A stretch of 64,000 bases of DNA from Candidatus Saganbacteria bacterium (GTDB lineage Bacteria > Margulisbacteria > WOR-1 > O2-12-FULL-45-9): NCBI GenBank assembly GCA_016219705.1, contig JACRKQ010000053.1:6793-70792 (forward strand), written 5' to 3'. The translations under genes were made by a program, and so were the position numbers. Shown in pieces: positions 4,404-63,856 of this stretch (position 1 is the first letter of the stretch; each line of letters starts with the position of its first letter). Below the pieces are notes generated by a model that worked only from the letters and a program-made list of their open reading frames with translations, was not told the origin of the DNA and searched no databases.

Positions 4404-5414
4404 TTATAGACGCAAGCTGGCAACAGGGGAGAGGGATAATGACGAATGACTAATGACTAATGACGAATTAATGAATTTATAATACCCAGCACAGCCAATC
4501 ATGGCTGCGTTATCAGTACAATATTCAAAGGGAGGAATTATTACTTCCAGCCCTTCTTTCTGACCTCTTTTTTGTAATCGACTCCTTAAGCTGGAATTGG
4601 CCGAGACGCCGCCGGCGAGGGTGACAATTTGGACGTTGCGATCTTTGGCCGCGCGAATGGTTTTCTCTACCAGCGTTTCGACGATGGCTTCCTGAAAACT
4701 AGCGACGAGGTCTGGAACTTGTGAAGCGTGAAGAGTGAGGCGTGAAACGTAATTTACAACCGCTGTTTTGATTCCGCTGAAACTGAAATCGTAACCCTGG
4801 TCCATCATAGGGCGGGGAAATTTGATGGCGGCTGGATTTCCTCTCTTGGCCAACTTATCAATAACCGGTCCGCCGGGATAACCCAAACCCAAAAAACGAG
4901 CGACTTTATCAAACGCTTCTCCCGCCGCATCATCCCGAGTCCGGCCCAGCGTTTCATATTCTCCATGACCTTTGACGAGAATAATCATTGTGTGCCCGCC
5001 GGAGACTAATAAACTAATAAAGGGAAAACTTAGAATTTTAGATTTAGAGTTTAAGAAGTTGGCGTATATGTGTCCTTCAAGATGGTTAACTTCAACCAGC
5101 GGGATTTTTCTTCCCCAGGCAATGGCTTTAGCTGCGCAGAGCCCGACGAGGAGGGAGCCGACCAAGCCTGGGCCATAAGTTACGGCAACGGCATTTATGT
5201 CGCCAAACCCAACGTTGGCTCTTTCCAGCGCTTCTTTAATGACCGGATTGATCACTTCAATATGTTTGCGAGCGGCAACTTCGGGAACAATCCCGCCATA
5301 TTTTTTATGAAATTCAATTTGCGAGGAGATGACGTTGGAAAGAACTTCCTGTCCGTCTCTGACAACGGCGGCGGCGGTTTCGTCACAGGATGTTTCGATG
5401 GCTACTATAAACAC
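4404..5414 (-). CDS. tsaD: tRNA N6-adenosine threonylcarbamoyltransferase
   Basis: Kae1/TsaD motifs (IETSCDETAAAV, SLLVSGGHT, DDAAGEAFDKVAR, AGGVSAN); contains heptamer-repeat-derived segments. Confidence 0.85.
   Translation of the reverse strand: MFIVAIETSCDETAAAVVRDGQEVLSNVISSQIEFHKKYGGIVPEVAARKHIEVINPVIKEALERANVGFGDINAVAVTYGPGLVGSLLVGLCAAKAIAWGRKIPLVEVNHLEGHIYANFLNSKSKILSFPFISLLVSGGHTMIILVKGHGEYETLGRTRDDAAGEAFDKVARFLGLGYPGGPVIDKLAKRGNPAAIKFPRPMMDQGYDFSFSGIKTAVVNYVSRLTLHASQVPDLVASFQEAIVETLVEKTIRAAKDRNVQIVTLAGGVSANSSLRSRLQKRGQKEGLEVIIPPFEYCTDNAAMIGCAGYYKFINSSLVISHSSLSLSPVASLRL
4437..4478. repeat. heptamer array (TAATGAC/GAATGAC)x4 plus degenerate units, 42 nt, encoding the C-terminal tail of tsaD
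   Basis: Direct reading of sequence. Confidence 0.85.
4721..4755. repeat. heptamer array GTGAAGC GTGAAGA GTGAGGC GTGAAAC inside tsaD
   Basis: Direct reading. Confidence 0.8.
5021..5048. repeat. irregular TTAGANT ~7-nt tandem repeat inside tsaD
   Basis: Direct reading. Confidence 0.6.
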
Positions 5415-6478
5415 AGCAGAGGAACCTCCTTTTTGGACAATGACAGTGGTCGGGCATCACGCTGGCCCAGGAAGACGTCGGGGAAGATATCAAGGGGCCA
5501 ACCCAGTTCGTTCAAAGAAAGGGAAAAATAATTAGTGGCATTATAGGCAAAATCGCCGTAGGAATGGTAGGCGTAATGTAAACTGACGCCGGCGTAATGG
5601 AAAGTTGCTCCGTAAGTGAAATTATTGGTCAAGGTCGAGCTCTGCGGGTCCTGGTCGACGCCGGCGCGTAAAGTTAAAAATGGATTAGGCGCAAATTCAA
5701 TTCCGGTATGGATGGTTGTCGATTTGGCTGTTTGCAGACTTACATTGGCGTCGGCCGCGATGGAGAGATCAACCGGCGCATAAACAGCCGCTTTTAATTC
5801 TTCGCCCAAGAGAAAAAACCGGGAGCCGATTTTTATTGAGAGAGGTAGATTTTCTCCCTGGGAATTTGCGATGATTTTACTAGAACTGAAGAGATTTTGG
5901 CCGACAACGCCAAAGCTAAACGGACCAACTCCCTGCTGCAGCAAACCGACGTCCAGGTTCCAGCAGCTGCCGGAGCCGGCGCTGACTTCATAGCCATTCT
6001 GGGTATAATATTTCAAGTTAAGCCCCCAGGAGAAGCGTTCATTAAGACGGCGGCCGAACGAGAGGAAGATAACGCTATCGTTGAAAGAGGTTGTTGATTT
6101 TGGTAAAACGCTGGCCGAATCCCTGATTTCAATTCCTCCGATATTGGCGCCGACATAACCCAGCCCGATGGCGCTCTGCTCGCCGAGAGGATAAACGCCG
6201 CCTAGCAGAGAATAAGTGACATCCTCCATGACATTGGCTGACATTGAGAGGAGTTCAAAAGCGTCGATACCGCCCAATCCAGCTGGATTGCTGAAAATAG
6301 TATCAGCGGATTCTCCGACCGCCACGTATGCTCGTCCCATTCCCAGCGCGCGGGCGCCAACGCCGATGGTGAGAGGATCAAAGGTTGTTTGGGCGGCAAC
6401 AACACTGGGAAGAAATGACAAATGACAAATGACAAATGACAAATGAAGGAATCGCTTCGCGATATTATAATAATTCAT
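5405..6478 (-). CDS. secreted outer-membrane beta-barrel protein, PorV/PorQ/FadL-like
   Basis: N-terminal signal peptide followed by GARALGMGRAYVAVGESADTIFSNPAGLG (FadL/PorV-family N-terminal signature), alternating beta-strand pattern, aromatic C-terminus; family assignment from memory only. Confidence 0.4.
   Translation of the reverse strand: MNYYNIAKRFLHLSFVICHLSFLPSVVAAQTTFDPLTIGVGARALGMGRAYVAVGESADTIFSNPAGLGGIDAFELLSMSANVMEDVTYSLLGGVYPLGEQSAIGLGYVGANIGGIEIRDSASVLPKSTTSFNDSVIFLSFGRRLNERFSWGLNLKYYTQNGYEVSAGSGSCWNLDVGLLQQGVGPFSFGVVGQNLFSSSKIIANSQGENLPLSIKIGSRFFLLGEELKAAVYAPVDLSIAADANVSLQTAKSTTIHTGIEFAPNPFLTLRAGVDQDPQSSTLTNNFTYGATFHYAGVSLHYAYHSYGDFAYNATNYFSLSLNELGWPLDIFPDVFLGQRDARPLSLSKKEVPLLCL
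6413..6452. repeat. (AAATGAC)x4 + AAATGAAGGAAT terminus, antisense within signal-peptide codons of PorV-like gene
   Basis: Direct reading. Confidence 0.9.
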
Positions 6479-13758: not shown

Positions 13759-13798
13759 AAATGACAAATGACAAATTACAAATGACAAATGAAGGAAT
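13759..13798. repeat. AAATGAC AAATGAC AAATTAC AAATGAC + AAATGAAGGAAT in efp-accB spacer
   Basis: Direct reading. Confidence 0.9.
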
Positions 13799-15867: not shown

Positions 15868-16950
15868 ATGAAGAGAAGCAAGGTCTCGGTGCTAAAAACT
15901 AAACCGGAAACGGCGCTGGCTGATTACGGCCAGTTAATGCGCTTGGCTGATTATCAAAATTATTTGCCCAAAGACAAAGATACCGCGTTAAAGATTAATA
16001 TCTCCTGGCACCATTTTTATCCAGCCTGTTCCACCACCCCCTGGCAGCTTGAAGGCGTAATCAAAACACTTTTGGCTGACGGCTATAAGCGGGAATTAAT
16101 TCACGGTTGTCATAATCGGACGGTGGTTGTCTCGGCGACAAAAGGGGAGCTGGCGAATAAACATAAGCCTGTAATTGATAAATATGGATTGAGAAATGTC
16201 CATCTTTACAAAGACGAACAGTGGATAAAATATGAACCGCAGGGAAAAATGTTGGTCCTGGACCAGATATTCCCCGACGGGATTTATATCCCCAAACGGT
16301 TTATCGGTGAAAATATTATCCATTTGCCGACGATAAAGACTCATATTTTTACAACAATAACCGGCGCCATGAAAAATGCTTTTGGCGGGCTCTTGCATGA
16401 AAAACGCCATTGGACCCATTCAGTAATCCATGAAACATTAGTGGATCTATTAACGATCCAGAAAGAGATCCACTCCGGCCTTTTTGCGGTCATGGACGGG
16501 ACTTTTGCCGGAGATGGCCCCGGGCCGCGCTGCATGGTCCCTTACGTTAAAGATTACATCCTGGCTTCCAATGATCAGGTGGCTATCGACGCGATCGCGG
16601 CGCAGATGATGGGGTTTGACCCGATGTCGCTTAAATTTATCCGCCTGGCGCATGAGGCCGGTTTAGGGGTAGGCGACCCGCAGGAAATTGAAGTTGTCGG
16701 GGAAGATATTTCCAAAGTTAATTTCCATTTCCAGATGGAGCGGACGACTTTTGCCAGCCGCGGTCAGGAATTGATCTATTGGGGACCGTTAAAACCGCTG
16801 GAAAATTTTCTGCTCCGCACTGTCCTGGCTCCCTGGTCGTATCTGGCCTCAATTTTGTATCACGATTATTACTGGTATCCCTGTGTCGGCAAAGAACGTG
16901 TTAATGAGATGCTTAAGACCGGCTGGGGCCAGCTCTTCCAGAGTTATTAA
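15868..16950 (+). CDS. DUF362-domain protein
   Basis: IKTHIFTTITGAMKNAFGG matches the DUF362 KTH signature from memory; the ORF track starts at 15838 overlapping vapC, in-frame ATG at 15868 preferred. Confidence 0.55.
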   Translation: MKRSKVSVLKTKPETALADYGQLMRLADYQNYLPKDKDTALKINISWHHFYPACSTTPWQLEGVIKTLLADGYKRELIHGCHNRTVVVSATKGELANKHKPVIDKYGLRNVHLYKDEQWIKYEPQGKMLVLDQIFPDGIYIPKRFIGENIIHLPTIKTHIFTTITGAMKNAFGGLLHEKRHWTHSVIHETLVDLLTIQKEIHSGLFAVMDGTFAGDGPGPRCMVPYVKDYILASNDQVAIDAIAAQMMGFDPMSLKFIRLAHEAGLGVGDPQEIEVVGEDISKVNFHFQMERTTFASRGQELIYWGPLKPLENFLLRTVLAPWSYLASILYHDYYWYPCVGKERVNEMLKTGWGQLFQSY

Positions 16951-18650
16951 TGCGCAAAAAGTGGTTGATTCATCCGGAGAGTCAGTTAGTGCGACAATTA
17001 GCGGACGAATTAAATATCTCTGCTATTACGGCCCAAATTCTGATCAATCGCGGCATTAATAATCCGGCCCAAGCCCAGGTTTTTCTTCAACCTAAATTAA
17101 TCAATTTGTCCGATCCTTTTGAAATTCCCAATATAAAACAGGCGGCCGAACGGGTTTTATTGGCTAAAGAACGCGGGGAAAAGGTTTTGATTTTTGGAGA
17201 TTATGATGTTGATGGGGTGACCGGCACGGCCATTCTGCTGCAGACGCTCAAATTCCTGGGGCTGGCCCCTTTACATTATATACCGCACCGCTACGATGAA
17301 GGCTACAGCCTGTCGCTTGAAGCAGTGGAAAAAATCGCGGCTGACGGGGTAAAGCTTATTATCACCGTAGATTGCGGGACCTCTAATTTTACAGAGATTA
17401 CCCGAGCGCGTGAATTAGGGATGGAAGTGGTGGTAACTGATCATCATAATTTATCTCGACAAGTCCTGCCGGCGGCGGCGATTGTTAATCCCAAATTCAT
17501 GGCGCAAGACCATCCGGCGCGGAATCTGGCAGGGGCGGGGGTCGCGTTTAAGTTTGCTTGGGCTCTTTTGCGGACGGCGGGGATAAAAGAGAGCGCCTTT
17601 CTGGCTTCTCTTCTTGATCTGGCGGCTTTGGGGACGATTGCCGATATTGTCCCTCTGGCGGAAGAAAATCGGATTATCGCTGTCCGCGGGTTAGCCCAGC
17701 TCAACCAGCGCCAGCGTGTCGGTTTAAGACATTTATCTGATGTGGCCGGCCTGCCCGAGAGGGTGACGGTCGAACATGTCAGTTTTTCCCTGGCGCCGCG
17801 GATCAATGCGGCGGGCCGTTTGGAGCACGCCAATAAAGCGCTGGAGCTAATGTTGACGGCTGATGAATCTCAAGCCCAAGAGCTGGCTGGCGAATTAAAT
17901 TCAATAAATATAAAACGTCAGGATATAGGCAGCGGCATCAAGTCAGCGGTCTTCGGGCAATTAACCGATCATATTATGGAGGACGAGCCGTTAATTGTTT
18001 TAAGCGGGGATAATTGGCATCCTGGAGTAATTGGCATTGTTGCTTCGCAAGTGGTCGATCGCTTTTCCCGTCCGACGATTTTGATTGGTGTTTATGATGA
18101 AGTGGGACGGGGTTCGGCGCGGTCATTAGCTGGGATTAATATTTATAATCTACTTAATTCCTGCAGCGATCTCTTTGAAACTTTTGGCGGACACGCCGGG
18201 GCGGCGGGTTTTGAAATTAAAACTGATAAACTGACTGAATTGACCAGCCGCTTAAAAGAGGCGGCGCAGATATCTTTAGCGCCTGAAGCTTTGATCCCTA
18301 AACTGATGATCGATATGGAATTACCGACCCAAACCTTAACATTAACGCTGGCAAAAAAGTTGGAAATATTTGCTCCTCATGGAGAAGGGAATCCTCAACC
18401 GCTCTTTTTAAGCCGCCAACTTCGCTTAATCGATCAACGGACTGTCGGCCGGGACAATCGGCATTTGAAATTAAAATTATCTGATGGAATTGCTCATCTT
18501 GATACCATTGGCTTTGATTGTGGCCACTTGGCCGGCCAATTAGTGGCTAATGCCTGTTATGATGTTGTCTATCGACTGGAGTCCAATGAATGGAATGGAT
18601 TTGAGAATGTCCAGCTTAACCTGGCGGATATTAGGGAGGCTAAATCATGA
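16950..18650 (+). CDS. recJ: single-stranded-DNA-specific exonuclease RecJ
   Basis: DHH (GDYDVDGVTG, VTDHH) and DHHA1 motifs, 566 aa. Confidence 0.85.
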   Translation: MRKKWLIHPESQLVRQLADELNISAITAQILINRGINNPAQAQVFLQPKLINLSDPFEIPNIKQAAERVLLAKERGEKVLIFGDYDVDGVTGTAILLQTLKFLGLAPLHYIPHRYDEGYSLSLEAVEKIAADGVKLIITVDCGTSNFTEITRARELGMEVVVTDHHNLSRQVLPAAAIVNPKFMAQDHPARNLAGAGVAFKFAWALLRTAGIKESAFLASLLDLAALGTIADIVPLAEENRIIAVRGLAQLNQRQRVGLRHLSDVAGLPERVTVEHVSFSLAPRINAAGRLEHANKALELMLTADESQAQELAGELNSINIKRQDIGSGIKSAVFGQLTDHIMEDEPLIVLSGDNWHPGVIGIVASQVVDRFSRPTILIGVYDEVGRGSARSLAGINIYNLLNSCSDLFETFGGHAGAAGFEIKTDKLTELTSRLKEAAQISLAPEALIPKLMIDMELPTQTLTLTLAKKLEIFAPHGEGNPQPLFLSRQLRLIDQRTVGRDNRHLKLKLSDGIAHLDTIGFDCGHLAGQLVANACYDVVYRLESNEWNGFENVQLNLADIREAKS

Positions 18651-19948
18651 AGATAATGGTTGTCGGTTCCGGCGGCCGCGAGCACGCGCTGATTTGGAAA
18701 ATCAAGCAGAGTTCAGTCGTTGCAAAAATTTATTGTGTGCCGGGGAATGCCGGAACAGCGGAACTGGCGGAAAATGTGGAGATTAAAGCGGATGATATTA
18801 ACGGTCTGCTGAAATTTGCCAAAGAACAAAAAATCAATCTGACTGTTGTTGGTCCCGAAGTGCCGTTGGCGGCCGGCATAGTTGATTTGTTCAACAAAAA
18901 TGATTTAAGGATTTTTGGCCCGTCTGCGGCGGCAGCGCGGATTGAGGGGAGCAAAGTTTTTGCTAAACAATTTATGGCTAAATATGGCATTCCCACCGCC
19001 CAATCCGGGATCTTCGCTGATAAAAAAAAGGCAAAAGCTTACATTAACATGATGGGGGCGCCGATCGTGGTCAAGGCCGATGGTTTAGCGGCGGGGAAGG
19101 GGGTCGTCGTCTGCCAAACAGTTGAGGCGGCAAATCAGGCGGTTGAACTTATTATGGAGAAAAAAGAATTCGGCCAGGCCGGGGCGCAGGTTGTCATTGA
19201 GGAGTGTTTGATCGGGGAAGAATCTTCGATTATTGCTTTAACTGATGGCGAAACAATTGTTCCTCTGGCTTCATCTCAAGACCACAAACGGATTTTTGAT
19301 AATGATGAGGGACCAAATACCGGAGGGATGGGAGCGTATTCACCGGCGCCGGTTGTGACCGATGGTTTAATGGAACAGATTAATAATGAGGTCCTTCTCC
19401 CCTTCGTCCAAGGAATGAAACAGGAGGGGATTGTTTACAAGGGAGTTATTTATGCTGGAATTATGGTTACAAAAGCGGGGCCGAAGGTTTTAGAGTTTAA
19501 TGCCCGTTTTGGCGATCCGGAAACCCAACCGATCATGATGCGGCTCAAGAGCGATCTTGTCCCGATTCTTGAAGCAGTGATAGACGGTAAATTAGCCGGC
19601 CAAAAAATTATTTGGGACGAACGAGCGGCGGTCTGTGTCGTTTTAGCGGCGGGAGGCTATCCGGGGAAATATGAGACTGGTTTGCCGATCACCGGATTAG
19701 ATAAAGTTCATCAGGTTGCTAAGGCTTATGTTTTTCATGCGGGAACGAAAATAGAGGATAGAACAGAGAAGACAGAACACAGACTACAGATATCAACTAA
19801 TGGCGGCCGCGTTCTTGGCGTGACAGCGTTAGGCGATTCGCTCAAATTTGCTATCGACAAAGCTTACCAGGCTGTCTCATTAATCAATTTTAAAGGCATG
19901 CATTACCGGAAAGATATCGGTGGGAAGGCCCTGAAGCTGGTTCGCTAA
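18647..19948 (+). CDS. purD: phosphoribosylamine--glycine ligase
   Basis: Full-length PurD (ATP-grasp; MKIMVVGSGGREHAL, TNGGRVLGVTALG); carries a 42-nt heptamer-array insertion. Confidence 0.9.
   Translation: MKIMVVGSGGREHALIWKIKQSSVVAKIYCVPGNAGTAELAENVEIKADDINGLLKFAKEQKINLTVVGPEVPLAAGIVDLFNKNDLRIFGPSAAAARIEGSKVFAKQFMAKYGIPTAQSGIFADKKKAKAYINMMGAPIVVKADGLAAGKGVVVCQTVEAANQAVELIMEKKEFGQAGAQVVIEECLIGEESSIIALTDGETIVPLASSQDHKRIFDNDEGPNTGGMGAYSPAPVVTDGLMEQINNEVLLPFVQGMKQEGIVYKGVIYAGIMVTKAGPKVLEFNARFGDPETQPIMMRLKSDLVPILEAVIDGKLAGQKIIWDERAAVCVVLAAGGYPGKYETGLPITGLDKVHQVAKAYVFHAGTKIEDRTEKTEHRLQISTNGGRVLGVTALGDSLKFAIDKAYQAVSLINFKGMHYRKDIGGKALKLVR
19753..19794. repeat. (AGANNNC)x6 heptamer array, 42 nt in-frame in purD
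   Basis: Direct reading. Confidence 0.85.
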
Positions 19949-20258: not shown

Positions 20259-20329
20259 GGGAGTGTCGGTTAATGGTAAACCACTGGTCTCCAAAACCAG
20301 GACTGGGGGTTCGAGCCCTCCCACTCCCG
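20259..20329 (+). tRNA. tRNA-Trp (anticodon CCA)
   Basis: Hand-folded cloverleaf: acceptor GGGAGTG/CACTCCC, D-arm GGTT-AATGGTA-AACC, anticodon arm CTGGT-CTCCAAA-ACCAG, T-arm GGGGG-TTCGAGC-CCTCC; canonical rpmG-tRNATrp-secE-nusG context. Confidence 0.8.
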
Positions 20330-22296: not shown

Positions 22297-22827
22297 ATGG
22301 CCAACGCAAAAGTTATTGATAAAAAACAACAGCTTGTCGATCAGCTCAAGGAAAAAATTGAGAAAGCCCGGGTTCTGGTCATTTCTGATTATCGCGGCGT
22401 GACAGTCTCTGAAATTACTGGATTGCGCCGCAAATTGCTGAAAGAAAAATCGGAATTTAAAATTGTAAAAAATACACTGTTGCAACGCGCTCTGGCGGCC
22501 AGCGGCTTTACCGATTTAGACCAGCATTTAAGCGGTCCGACCGCGATTCTCTTCGGTTATCAGGATCCGATTGCCCCGATAAAATTGCTGGTTGAGTATG
22601 TTGAAGAGATTGAAAAAGGCCAGGTTAAGGGCGGCATCGTTGAACGCCGAGTGGTCGACATCAAAGGGATTGCCGCGCTGTCGAAATTGCCGCCTAAAGA
22701 AGTCTTAATTGCCAAAGTGATTGGTGGTTTTAAGTCACCGCTTTATGGTCTGGTAAATGTGCTCCAGGGCAATATCCGTAAATTAGTTTATGTTTTTAAT
22801 GCTGTTAAGGATAAAAAAAGTAGTTAG
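22297..22827 (+). CDS. rplJ: 50S ribosomal protein L10
   Basis: Homology pattern and position between rplA and rplL. Confidence 0.85.
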   Translation: MANAKVIDKKQQLVDQLKEKIEKARVLVISDYRGVTVSEITGLRRKLLKEKSEFKIVKNTLLQRALAASGFTDLDQHLSGPTAILFGYQDPIAPIKLLVEYVEEIEKGQVKGGIVERRVVDIKGIAALSKLPPKEVLIAKVIGGFKSPLYGLVNVLQGNIRKLVYVFNAVKDKKSS

Positions 22828-22857
22828 TTGTGAGTTGTAAGTTAATTGAGAAAGGAA
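22821..22857. repeat. TAGTTAG TTGTGAG TTGTAAG TTAATTG + AGAAAGGAAGG in rplJ-rplL spacer
   Basis: Direct reading. Confidence 0.7.
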
Positions 22858-22867
22858 GGTGAAAAAG

Positions 22868-23242
22868 ATGGCGAATGTTGATGAAATTCTGACATCAGTT
22901 GAACAGTTGACAGTTTTAGAATTAGCTGATTTAGTGAAAAAGCTGGAAGAGAAGTTTGGCGTTTCGGCGGTTGCCCCGATGATGATGGGCGGTGGCGTGG
23001 CGGCCGGCGGAGGTGAAGCGGCGGAAGTTAAGGATGAATTTGATGTTGTCTTGGTTAGCGCCGGAGATAAAAAAATTCAAGTCCTTAAAGTTCTGCGCGA
23101 AGTTACCGGTTTGGGCTTAAAAGAAGCCAAGGAAGTTGTTGATTCTGCTCCAAAACCAGTCAAATCCGGCGTCAAGAAAGAAGAAGCGGAAGAAATTAAG
23201 AAAAAGCTGGAGACTGAAGGAGCGAAAGTCGAGATTAAGTAA
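22868..23242 (+). CDS. rplL: 50S ribosomal protein L7/L12
   Basis: [32 protein letters not shown]..., Gly/Ala hinge, C-terminal [30 protein letters not shown]. Confidence 0.9.
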
Positions 23243-50557: not shown

Positions 50558-50597
50558 GAATGACTAATTCCTAATGCCTAATGTCTAATGAAGGAAT
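50558..50597. repeat. GAATGAC TAATTCC TAATGCC TAATGTC + TAATGAAGGAAT filling spacer upstream of truA
   Basis: Direct reading. Confidence 0.9.
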
Positions 50598-59058: not shown

Positions 59059-61923
59059 CTGGAGTACAAACAAACCCTCAATCTGCCCCAGACCGCTTTT
59101 CCCATCCGCGCTAATTTGCAAAAAATTGAAGCGGATTTGCTGGCGCATTGGGAAAATCTTGACCTCTATCAGCAAATTCAAGCCAAGAATAAAACAGCCG
59201 CTAAAAAATTTGTTTTGCATGACGGCCCCCCTTATCCTAATGGCGATATTCACCTTGGCCATGCTTTGAATAAAATCATCAAAGATATCATTATTAAATA
59301 TAAATCGATGCAGGGCTTTGCCTCTCCCTATATCCCCGGTTGGGACTGTCACGGTTTGCCGATCGAAACACAGCTGATCAAGCAGTTGACAGATGAAGAG
59401 CGCAAAAAATATAAAGAGCCGAATAAAAAAGTTGAGTTTAGGAATAGGTGTAAAGAATATGCCTTAAAATATGTTGACTTGCAGCGCCAGGAGTTTAAAC
59501 GCCTGGGAGCGCTTGGCGACTGGGAAAACCCATATTTAACGATTGATCCTCTATATGAAGCCGACATAATTCGCCTCTTTGGGGATTTGGCCGAAAAAGG
59601 TTATGTTTATCGCGGCTTAAAACCGATTCACTGGTGTCCGCATTGCGAAACGGCATTGGCGGAAGCGGAATTGGAATATGAGGAGGATAAGTCGCCGTCA
59701 ATCTACGTCAAATTCGAAATCCGAAATCCGAAATCAGAAATAAATTCCAAAATTAAAAATCCAAACTTGCCAACTGATTTGCCCTGGTTTTTTGTCGTTT
59801 GGACGACGACGCCGTGGACTCTGCCAGCGAACATGGCGATTGCAGCGCATGCGGAATACGAGTACGTATTTATTAATGTCAAATGTCAAATGACAAATGA
59901 CAAATATCGGAATGAAATTTATATTGTTGCCGAAGGTTTGCTGGAAGATTTTGTAAAAAGAGTCGGGATTACAGATTATCAAATCATTGATAAGACCAAA
60001 GGGGAATATTTAGAAGGCGTTGTCGCTAAACATCCCTTTATTGATTGCGACGTTATGCTCGTCTTGGATGAATATGTCACCCTGGAGCAGGGGACGGGCT
60101 TGGTACATATTGCTCCAGGACACGGAATTGAAGATTATAAAGTTGGTCTAAAATATAAATTGTTCCCCATTGTCATGCCGGTTACGGCTGATGGGCGCTT
60201 TGACGAAACGGTCCCGGAATTTATCCGCGGTGAATTTTATAAGAAAGCGAATGACTTAATTATTGAGCAACTCAAAAATGGAGGAAGTTTTCTCAGGTTA
60301 GAGAACATAAAACATTCTTTCCCTCATTGCTGGCGCTGTAAGAATCCCGTTATTTTTCGGGCAACCGAGCAGTGGTTTGTTTCTGTTGATCATCTTGGAA
60401 TGCGCGAGAAGGCATTGAAGGCCATTATTGATACAAAGTGGTATCCGGCTTGGGGAGAAAATCGGATTCGCGGGATGGTAGAAACCCGTCCGGATTGGTG
60501 TATCTCTCGTCAGAGAACCTGGGGGGTGCCGATTCCGGTTTTTTATTGTGATAAATGTCACCAGCCGTCAATGACCGGAATTTTTAATGAATCAATCCGC
60601 AAAATTGTTTTAGAACGGGGGACGAATGGTTGGTTTGATTTGTCAGCCAAGGAGATTTTGCCGTCGGGAACAAAATGTTCAAAATGCGACGGCGATTCTT
60701 TTACTAAAGAAACCGATATTCTCGATGTCTGGTTTGAATCAGGCTCGTCTCACGCGCTGCTGGAGCGCTTGCCGGATCATCATTGGCCGGCGGACTTATA
60801 TCTTGAGGGTTCTGATCAGCATCGCGGTTGGTTTCAAAGTTCTTTATTGATTGCTGTGGGATATAAAGGGAGGGCGCCGTTTAATTCTGTCCTGACTCAT
60901 GGCTTTACCATTGATGATAAGGGAAAAAAGATGAGCAAATCCCTGGGCAATGTCATCGGTCCGCAAGAGGTGGTTAAAGAATATGGAGCGGATGTTTTGC
61001 GTCTCTGGGTTGCGTCGACAGATTTTCGCAACGATATGGCGGCGTCAAAGAATATTCTAGTTCAGGTCAGAGAGGCCTATTCAAAAATTCGCAATACCTG
61101 CCGTTTTTTAATCAGTAATTTATATGATTTTACCCCCTCCTCCGACGTGCGTCGGAGTCTCCCCCTTGAAAAGGGGGAGAATGAGAGGGGGTTGCTTGAA
61201 CTTGACCGTTGGATACTTTTGCGCTTGAATCGATTAATTGAGAGGATAATCCAATCTTACGACGAATATGAACTGCACGTTGTTTATCACGCTCTTTATG
61301 AATTTTGTGTAAACGATCTCTCGGCTCATTATCTCGATATGTCCAAAGATCGGCTGTATTGCGACGGTAAAAGTTCGCCAGAGCGACGCTCGGCCCAATT
61401 TGCGATGTGGGAGATATTGTTTGCCTTAGTTGGAATGATGGCCCCTGTTCTCTCCTTTACGGCGGAAGACATCGGGCGGCATATGGCGGCAATGACTAAT
61501 GACAAATGCCTAATGCCTAATGAAGGCAGTATCTTTTTATCAAACTTCCCTAAAATTAAGGAAGAATATTTAGATAAAGAGTTAGAAGCTCGCTGGGAAA
61601 AGATTATGGTTTTGCGAGCGGAAGTTTATAAAGTGTTGGAAGAGAAGCGGGCCAATAAAATTATTTCGGCTTCGATTGAAGCCGTTGTGGAGATTGGCTT
61701 GCAGGGTCGGGAATGGCTGAAAGCTGTTGATCCCAAAATTCTCCCGATGGTTTTAATTGTTTCCCAAGTCAAATTGGTCGACGGAGATAAAATCGCAGTA
61801 AGTAAGGCGTCTGATCAAAAATGCGGCCGTTGCTGGATGTTGCTCCCGACGGTGGGGAAGAGCCATCAACATCCGGATTTGTGTGAGCGTTGTGAAAAGG
61901 TTGTCAGGGAATTGACAGGGTAA
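59059..61923 (+). CDS. ileS: isoleucine--tRNA ligase (probable CTG start; the ORF track begins at TTG 59116)
   Basis: HLGHALNK (HIGH), KMSKS, C-terminal zinc finger CGRCW...CERC; conserved N-terminus EYKQTLNLPQTAFP is encoded upstream of the called start. Confidence 0.85.
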   Translation: MEYKQTLNLPQTAFPIRANLQKIEADLLAHWENLDLYQQIQAKNKTAAKKFVLHDGPPYPNGDIHLGHALNKIIKDIIIKYKSMQGFASPYIPGWDCHGLPIETQLIKQLTDEERKKYKEPNKKVEFRNRCKEYALKYVDLQRQEFKRLGALGDWENPYLTIDPLYEADIIRLFGDLAEKGYVYRGLKPIHWCPHCETALAEAELEYEEDKSPSIYVKFEIRNPKSEINSKIKNPNLPTDLPWFFVVWTTTPWTLPANMAIAAHAEYEYVFINVKCQMTNDKYRNEIYIVAEGLLEDFVKRVGITDYQIIDKTKGEYLEGVVAKHPFIDCDVMLVLDEYVTLEQGTGLVHIAPGHGIEDYKVGLKYKLFPIVMPVTADGRFDETVPEFIRGEFYKKANDLIIEQLKNGGSFLRLENIKHSFPHCWRCKNPVIFRATEQWFVSVDHLGMREKALKAIIDTKWYPAWGENRIRGMVETRPDWCISRQRTWGVPIPVFYCDKCHQPSMTGIFNESIRKIVLERGTNGWFDLSAKEILPSGTKCSKCDGDSFTKETDILDVWFESGSSHALLERLPDHHWPADLYLEGSDQHRGWFQSSLLIAVGYKGRAPFNSVLTHGFTIDDKGKKMSKSLGNVIGPQEVVKEYGADVLRLWVASTDFRNDMAASKNILVQVREAYSKIRNTCRFLISNLYDFTPSSDVRRSLPLEKGENERGLLELDRWILLRLNRLIERIIQSYDEYELHVVYHALYEFCVNDLSAHYLDMSKDRLYCDGKSSPERRSAQFAMWEILFALVGMMAPVLSFTAEDIGRHMAAMTNDKCLMPNEGSIFLSNFPKIKEEYLDKELEARWEKIMVLRAEVYKVLEEKRANKIISASIEAVVEIGLQGREWLKAVDPKILPMVLIVSQVKLVDGDKIAVSKASDQKCGRCWMLLPTVGKSHQHPDLCERCEKVVRELTG
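59715..59749. repeat. (CGAAATC)x3 plus degenerate units inside ileS
   Basis: Direct reading. Confidence 0.85.
59874..59915. repeat. TAATGTC AAATGTC AAATGAC AAATGAC AAATATC GGAATGA, 42 nt in-frame in ileS
   Basis: Direct reading. Confidence 0.9.
61133..61191. repeat. 59-nt GC-rich nested palindromic element inside ileS: outer stem CCCCCTC/GAGGGGG enclosing two perfect hairpins
   Basis: Inner hairpins: CTCCGACG-tg-CGTCGGAG (61140-61157) and TCTCCCCC-TTGAAAA-GGGGGAGA (61158-61180). Confidence 0.8.
61490..61526. repeat. CAATGAC TAATGAC AAATGCC TAATGCC TAATGAAGG in ileS
   Basis: Direct reading. Confidence 0.85.
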
Positions 61924-63814: not shown

Positions 63815-63856
63815 AAATGACAAATGCCAAATTACAAATGACAAATGAAGGAAGAA
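63815..63856. repeat. AAATGAC AAATGCC AAATTAC AAATGAC + AAATGAAGGAAG downstream of ahcY
   Basis: Direct reading. Confidence 0.9.

Follow-up and report, generated by a model that had tools for sequence, protein, structure and literature searches.

The 64,000-nucleotide (nt) stretch of the Candidatus Saganbacteria contig JACRKQ010000053.1 analysed here, referred to below as the window, carries on its plus strand an intact open reading frame (ORF) at 18647-19948 that encodes the 433-residue phosphoribosylamine--glycine ligase PurD and contains an array of 7-nt repeats. The encoded protein resembles characterised PurD enzymes over its full length, with E-values over residues 1-431 of 1e-143 to PDB entry 2yw2 and 2.7e-137 to the E. 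coli enzyme (1gso), and a Candidatus Saganbacteria PurD with the GARS_N, GARS_A and GARS_C domains (PF02844, PF01071, PF02843) matches it at 100% identity. A confident fold was predicted by structure modelling, and conservation of all 53 columns that are invariant in the alignment suggests that the protein has PurD activity. Two conserved motifs delimit the region of interest. The FHAGT codons (residues 363-367; 19733-19747, plus strand) form the 5' boundary; almost all of the 120 closest homologs share this motif, and T367 is invariant in a 62-sequence alignment. The TNGGRV codons (residues 384-389; 19796-19813, plus strand), of which G386, G387, R388 and V389 are invariant in the same alignment, form the 3' boundary. 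Between them lies a variable hairpin loop, residues 368-383 (KIEDRTEKTEHRLQIS), encoded by 19748-19795.

Counted from its first base, the loop DNA comprises six units, AAAATAG, AGGATAG, AACAGAG, AAGACAG, AACACAG and ACTACAG, followed by ATATCA. All six units end in G, as do those of most relatives' arrays. The original prediction had described the repeat in a different register, as six AGAnnnn heptamers at 19753-19794, and the DNA does read AGAGGAT AGAACAG AGAAGAC AGAACAC AGACTAC AGATATC at these positions. Six AGA triplets spaced 7 nt apart are found at one place in the window, and none of 100 shuffles contained such a run. The array is offset by one base from the codons, with the codon frame starting at 19751 and the peptide EDRTEKTEHRLQIS encoded by 19754-19795. 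The array is degenerate, adjacent units never being identical, and Tandem Repeats Finder (TRF) covers only its best-preserved core, 3.4 copies of AGAACAC at 19760-19783 (82% matches, score 34). This core is close in size to the net insertion of around 21 nt relative to loops of 8-9 residues. When the window was searched for three copies of AACACAG with up to three mismatches, the purD core was the sole match.

The period of the loop DNA is clearly 7 nt. Of the 41 positions that can be compared at lag 7 in the 48-nt loop, 28 are identical, compared with a window-wide mean of 10.2 (standard deviation 3.1), and lag 3 yields only 14 of 45. With the peptide held fixed, whether it was re-encoded using the codon usage of the window or its real codons were shuffled, lag-7 identity of this level was obtained with P of approximately 1e-4, and none of 20,000 shuffled peptides reached the observed value. 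The loop therefore holds a heptanucleotide simple sequence repeat (SSR), with at least three head-to-tail copies beyond chance; the relatives hold 4-8 copies, some of them perfect.

The 120 closest homologs of the window PurD all belong to Margulisbacteria, Saganbacteria or WOR-1, and the loop between FHAGT and T[NSA]GGRV could be parsed in 113 of these. Its length falls into distinct classes, with 53 homologs having 8-9 residues and 34 having 14-16; shorter loops of 5-7 residues (six homologs), intermediate ones of 11-13 (five) and longer ones of 18-20 (ten) or 22-26 (five) make up the remainder. Among 133 parsed representatives of other phyla, the loop measures 8-9 residues in 113 and 10-14 in 12; a single 14-residue loop is real, and the few longer values are artefacts of the regular expression. 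Long loops in the clade consist of internal 7-residue repeats, such as ERRKAKG-ERRKAE, QSPVASP-QSPV, ESRKQKV-ESRAQV, DQRLKTE-DQRPQV and GYGTRGT-GYGDTGH. In a set of 46 distinct long loops, residues at lag 7 are identical in 29.2% of comparisons, as against 4-9% at all other lags, and none of 2000 shuffles attained the lag-7 value. A single heptamer read in its three frames accounts for 63% of the loop residues, against 37% in shuffled loops. A neighbour-joining tree computed with the loop masked shows long-loop and short-loop sequences intermingled. The reading frame continues across the loop in all 120 homologs, with the caveat that minor alleles with a shifted frame would not be visible in protein databases or consensus assemblies. 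Judged from these comparisons, the purD loop is a clade-wide, recurrently changing hotspot.

The purD DNA of 12 relatives was read, giving 13 sequences together with the window. All nine relatives with long loops proved to have a heptanucleotide array at the purD loop site. Two of these arrays are perfect, with five copies of AAAGGCG in L012 (JGI sample 3300045006) and four of GGACCAG in L020 (JGI sample 3300028032); the sample for L013 is SRR24270840. L016 holds eight units of the (T/A)AAGCAG type, and the others are of the AAAGCAG (L013), AGTCGCC (L014, listed as a rotation of CCCCAGT), AAAGTTG (L018), AACGTNG (L015) and GGGTACG (L023) types, while L022 shares the AACACAG type with the window. 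Units are thus homogeneous within a lineage and differ between lineages (AAAGGCG, GGACCAG, AAGCAGT, AGTCGCC, AAAGTTG, AACACAG). Lag-7 nucleotide identity reaches 64-76% in seven of the arrays (L012-L014, L016, L018, L020 and L022) and 53-55% in L015 and L023, the two most degenerate long loops; in each of the 12 loops longer than 8 residues it is at least as high as the identity at lag 21. In 11 of the 13 purD sequences nearly every unit, counted from the first loop base, ends in G, and this G is in line with the first base of the Glu codon where the loop opens with K-L-E, an alignment suggesting that the site is of common descent. As the best-phase routine breaks ties toward phase 0, the shared register was judged from position and the unit-final G instead. 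The gene recJ (DHH/DHHA1/RecJ_OB; 16950-18650) lies directly upstream of purD in the window with a 4-nt overlap, and this order is kept in 7 of the 12 fetched relatives (L012-L014, L016-L018 and L020).

Three pairs of close neighbours differ by whole units. L016 and L017, with 98.6% DNA identity outside the loop, hold eight and two units respectively, a difference of 42 nt. A difference of 21 nt separates the four units of L020 from the single unit of L021 (90.9% identity), and L018 likewise has three units (21 nt) more than L019 (78.9%). The two units of the short L017 allele, AAAGCAG and TAAGCAG, are of the same type as those of its long neighbour L016. A pattern scan of metagenome contigs for alleles of the L016/L017 lineage, out-of-frame alleles included, recovered just one more, the two-unit L024.

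Comparison with solved PurD (GAR synthetase) structures (1gso, 2yw2, 3mjf) defines the size of the insertion. These enzymes are full-length homologs with all of the conserved motifs and the same HAGT-TNGGRV hairpin, but their hairpin loop has 8-9 residues, as opposed to 16 in the window and up to 26 in relatives. Between HAGT and TNGGRV, the E. coli loop is the nine-residue KLADDEQVV. The HMMER alignment gap opposite the window loop spans 7 residues in E. coli (KLADDE-------QVV) and 7-8 residues in Aquifex 2yw2 and in 3mjf, which indicates a net insertion of approximately 7 residues (21 nt, three units). The original prediction of a 42-nt insertion is thus twice this size, with about three of the six units being additional to the basal loop; the outer units of the array correspond to ordinary loop codons (K-I-E... 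and ...Q-I-S). Nor are six heptamers the quantum needed to preserve frame: three units (21 nt) suffice. Repeat expansion under selection for frame, on the other hand, is strongly supported by the whole-unit differences among relatives, where the shorter states that had been anticipated are present (21 nt shorter in L021 and in L019, 42 nt shorter in L017). Unrelated lineages have loops of 8-9 residues rather than a non-repetitive segment of the same length. While expansion stands, a one-off insertion does not: the site has changed recurrently across the clade, and period-7 arrays occur at about 12 other sites in the window.

An AlphaFold2 model generated from the 62-sequence alignment has a mean predicted local distance difference test (pLDDT) score of 94.8 and a predicted template modelling (pTM) score of 0.92. 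Strands are formed by residues 367-370 and 381-384, and the coil tip at 371-380 has a mean pLDDT of 59; all other 10-residue blocks score at least 87, with the last three residues (431-433) at 73. In the model, the insert therefore lengthens the tip of a β-hairpin. The secondary structure, the low pLDDT and the tolerance of insertions and deletions (indels) suggest a surface loop. A coiled-coil heptad reading of the 7-residue repeat was rejected, the units being short, often Pro- or Gly-rich and modelled as loop. An RNA element is unsupported, with folding of the region no better than that of shuffles (z = 0.30); at the gathering threshold, the sole Rfam match in the whole window is a tRNA at 20259-20329.

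We consider the purD array to be a coding-region heptanucleotide microsatellite, in which slippage is filtered for reading frame at a tolerant loop, with a probability of roughly 0.8. According to this model, the number of units in the 7-nt repeat at the hairpin tip would rise and fall, the simplest cause being slipped-strand mispairing when the DNA is replicated or repaired. As 7 is not a multiple of 3, only frame-restoring changes would survive in a housekeeping gene, the simplest being the gain or loss of three units (21 nt, 7 residues). Over three consecutive units the heptamer is read in each of its three frames and consequently sets a 7-residue protein repeat (GGCGAAA giving GERRKAK, for example); such units would have to be free of stop codons in all frames. 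The site would tolerate these changes because it forms a flexible hairpin tip, where the insert is likely to be neutral. In the window copy, approximately three units would have been added to a loop of the 9-residue type and then blurred by point substitutions, and this old, degraded array is probably no longer very mutable.

A number of observations weigh against slippage in this simple form. An in-frame jump from one to four or from two to five units is impossible as a single simple slip, because a slip of three units requires more than three units to be present; either contractions are the prevailing change, or the jump proceeds via out-of-frame intermediates or compensating indels. No two adjacent units of the window array are identical, which leaves its present-day instability in doubt. 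Length variants that are out of frame, or that differ within a population, were not observed, and the one metagenome scan of the L016/L017 lineage yielded only the further two-unit allele. In addition, 100 pairs of proteins with at least 85% identity outside the loop were compared, and their length differences include 6 residues (10 pairs), 8 (7 pairs), 12 (8 pairs) and 3 (6 pairs), and the window PurD itself differs by 6 residues from its nearest relative, P0002. Strict quantisation in 7-residue steps is therefore ruled out as an absolute rule, and either other indels also occur or these pairs are not true sisters. Finally, P0003/P0016 and P0048/P0085, pairs of enzymes that are 92-97% identical elsewhere, have unrelated loop units, a replacement faster than point mutation and slippage readily explain. 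When the pair P0011/P0046 is considered alongside these two, PurD proteins 91-97% identical outside the loop are seen to differ entirely in loop sequence and unit type, and the turnover of the loop is thus much more rapid than that of the remaining gene, possibly through recombination or array replacement.

Heptamer arrays are not restricted to purD. Of the 33 TRF rows for the window, 15 have period 7, the best-scoring rows included, and about 12 period-7 arrays are present besides that of purD. Among perfect arrays of at least three copies with a unit longer than 4 nt, only period 7 is represented in the window, where none is expected. Array sizes cluster at 4.3-4.9 copies. Three copies of AAATGAC match at seven loci, all on the plus strand. 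Four AAATGAC-type arrays of 4.6-4.9 copies, at 6413-6446, 13759-13792, 50559-50590 and 63815-63848 (plus strand), each end in AAATGAAGGAA. Those at 13759, 50559 and 63815 are located just upstream of, or overlap, plus-strand gene starts (accB at 13789, truA at 50588 and an unnamed gene after 63848, respectively), while the array at 6413 overlaps a crudely called PorV-like ORF on the minus strand, covering codons 11-22 near its N-terminus; the family match of this ORF starts at residue 30. A perfect AAATGAC array holds ATG and TGA in register, creating a mini-ORF that encodes MTNDK. The AAATGAC arrays are similar to the TAACTGA arrays found in leaders of cyanobacteria and Beggiatoaceae; they may constitute a translational leader element. 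The purD array is of another kind. Its AACACAG-type unit is unrelated to AAATGAC and does not recur at many loci as the unit of a dispersed family would, and it is intragenic (codons 368-383 of 433) rather than in an intergenic or leader position, as the AAATGAC arrays at 13759, 50559 and 63815 are.

Arrays within coding sequence are also found in ileS and tsaD. The ileS gene (59116-61923, plus strand) contains three in-frame heptamer arrays, at 59710-59741, 59875-59905 and 61491-61523, which encode the peptides KFEIRNPKSEI, NVKCQMTNDKY and AMTNDKCLMPNE; opposite them, the solved IleS structure 8c9e has gaps of 11, 9 and 8 residues. Two of these arrays are of the AATGAC type, and in both the TGA is changed to TGT or TGC, such that the stop codon is avoided. 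In tsaD (4404-5414, minus strand), an AATGAC-type array at 4438-4468 encodes part of the C-terminal tail (residues 316-326 of 336), past the end of the TsaD family match, and a GTGAAGC-type array at 4721-4750 encodes residues 222-232. The AAATGAC-type arrays are on the plus strand regardless of local gene orientation, and GC skew is positive throughout the window (0.07-0.17); the arrays thus all point the same way along what would be a single replication arm, as is probable here. In the leader of rplL (L7/L12), at 22818-22843, there is a weak period-7 array of the AAGTTGT type, and a CAGTTGA(A) repeat covers rplL codons 13-19 (22896-22915). Period-7 arrays outside purD were also noted in two other Margulisbacteria contigs, L001 (AGGGACT, 4.6 copies, at 5084-5115 and AAGGGAA, 4.9 copies, at 5306-5340) and L024 (GACCCTA, 4.0 copies, at 4945-4972), and the heptamer habit therefore extends beyond the genome of the window.

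The abundance of these arrays leads to a different explanation of the purD loop, namely that a genome-wide process writes or copies heptamer arrays of approximately 4-5 units into many sites, in the manner of the dispersed STRR or TAACTGA-type arrays of cyanobacteria, and that the loop is simply a tolerant one among these sites. This would account for AAATGAC-type arrays at seven plus-strand loci, in intergenic leaders as well as in ileS and tsaD, for array sizes grouped at 4.3-4.9 copies, for the wholesale swapping of purD units between near-identical enzymes, and for jumps from one to four or two to five units that are hard to achieve by simple slippage. It is nonetheless unlikely, given that the AACACAG-type array of purD, unrelated to AAATGAC, is found nowhere else in the 64 kb, that short alleles already hold one or two units of the type seen in their long neighbour (L017 versus L016), and that the unit-final G of 11 of the 13 purD sequences points to local descent. 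A bolder version, which we view as doubtful, is that Margulisbacteria/Saganbacteria and Cyanobacteria share an active, replication-oriented heptamer-array process that, unlike ordinary slippage, makes arrays with a preferred size of approximately 4-5 units, writes them into 5' leaders and into essential genes at tolerant loops (purD, ileS, tsaD), and is able to replace units wholesale in strains 92-97% identical elsewhere. The jumps from 1-2 to 4-5 units, the wholesale replacement of units and the clustering at 4.3-4.9 copies keep a dedicated or ectopic array process alive as a minority reading.

Other readings of the array are less probable still. The step could instead be a tandem duplication of 21 nt (seven codons) favoured for its effect on the protein, for instance a longer hairpin that takes part in an interaction, with the 7-nt sub-period incidental. 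Length classes approximately 7 residues apart, the strong lag-7 amino-acid repeat and the presence of in-frame alleles only would all be expected in that case. However, the perfect runs of four and five heptamers (L020, L012) are not multiples of three units, and in all 12 loops longer than 8 residues nucleotide identity at lag 7 is not exceeded by that at lag 21; a selected interaction surface also sits poorly with a tip modelled as disordered and with peptides that are chemically unrelated between lineages (ERRKAKG, QSPVASP, GTRDQGP, GYGTRGT). We regard this duplication model as improbable. A phase-variation switch, in which single-unit slippage toggles purD as a contingency locus between purine auxotrophy and prototrophy, is highly improbable. 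Heptanucleotide SSRs do drive phase variation in pathogens, H. influenzae HMW1A being an example (PMC8262952), and some lineages have perfect purD tracts of 4-5 units. Yet purD is a housekeeping gene, the array lies in its C-terminal fifth, the window tract is degenerate rather than long and perfect, and 120 of 120 homologs are in frame, albeit in protein databases, where frameshifted alleles are invisible. Least credible of all is that the 7-nt period is a chance by-product of purine-rich codons (AGA, ACA, GAA, GAG) in a charged loop. The imperfection of the window array, of which TRF detects 3.4 copies with a score of 34, is in keeping with such an origin, but chance and codon bias are refuted by the resampling, with either the peptide fixed or the peptide shuffled, and by the relatives' DNA, in which all nine long loops have period-7 arrays at the same site, several of them perfect.

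A frame-filtered microsatellite in purD can be compared with several known systems. Heptanucleotide repeats are the most abundant class of long SSR in most prokaryotic genomes (Mrazek et al. 2007, as cited in PMC4679880), and polymerase slippage has been proposed as the cause of long SSRs (Mrazek, Guo and Shah 2007, as cited in PMC4679880 and PMC4692102). Like these, the purD array consists of a few head-to-tail 7-nt units that change by whole units. Long SSRs are mainly intergenic, units that are not a multiple of 3 being disfavoured in coding regions (Mrazek et al. 2007, as cited in PMC4679880), whereas the purD array is found in the gene of a conserved housekeeping enzyme and occupies a single orthologous position across a candidate phylum, and its cleanest changes are frame-filtered to three-unit steps. 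SSR contingency loci such as H. influenzae HMW1A (PMC8262952) share slippage of an SSR as the source of variation. Those loci toggle surface or restriction-modification genes via frameshifts or promoter spacing and have long perfect tracts; in purD we see only in-frame alleles of a biosynthetic enzyme, and a degenerate tract in the window.

Dispersed heptamer arrays have been described in Cyanobacteria, Beggiatoaceae and Xanthomonas, including the STRR of Calothrix, TAACTGA (PMC4679880) and GGGNATC (PMC4692102). They comprise approximately 2-6 heptamers, with four preferred (PMC4692102), show indels in 7-nt increments between strains and are mostly intergenic (PMC4679880, PMC4692102). Occasionally they occur within ORFs in a stop-free orientation, giving rise to LSVISYQ 7-residue repeats in hypothetical proteins (PMC4679880, PMC4692102). 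Array size, 7-nt indels and 7-residue repeats within ORFs are all features shared with purD, and these families occur in the sister phylum, Margulisbacteria and Saganbacteria being close neighbours of Cyanobacteria and regarded as their sister (PMC6349859). The window AAATGAC arrays upstream of start codons look like members of the STRR/TAACTGA class. In the STRR/TAACTGA families, however, a single invariant unit is repeated at tens to hundreds of loci, most of them between genes or in genes for hypothetical proteins, whereas the purD units are lineage-specific, occupy a single locus in the window and are shared in type by short alleles. The GGGNATC repeats of Xanthomonas and Nostoc are of a sequence kind reported to form G-quadruplexes (PMC4692102). 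The L020 loop (about 1402-1446) is alike in sequence, since four copies of GGGACCA and their flanks present six coding-strand GGG tracts at 7-nt spacing, and such tracts are also present in L023; the window array is without G tracts. A search of the accessible literature found no report tying Margulisbacteria or Saganbacteria to heptamer or tandem repeats.

Slippage of SSRs combined with purifying selection is a textbook mechanism, and heptamer SSRs are known in bacteria. What sets this case apart is an orthologous, recurrently rewritten heptanucleotide SSR hotspot inside a conserved housekeeping enzyme. The locus offers an unusually clean natural experiment in the evolution of a non-triplet microsatellite within an essential gene, one hairpin having been rewritten many times. 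The frame constraint would turn 7-nt slippage into 7-residue steps in the closest pairs, and the DNA unit can be deduced from the peptide by way of the three-frame reading. The model also accounts for a hypervariable indel region, one that will interfere with PurD alignments and trees for Margulisbacteria, and it marks a permissive insertion site in the enzyme. The findings further suggest that heptamer arrays, known for a long time from Cyanobacteria, are frequent in the non-photosynthetic sister lineages as well. Should these groups indeed share an array-generating process, the purD hairpin would be a natural recorder of it.

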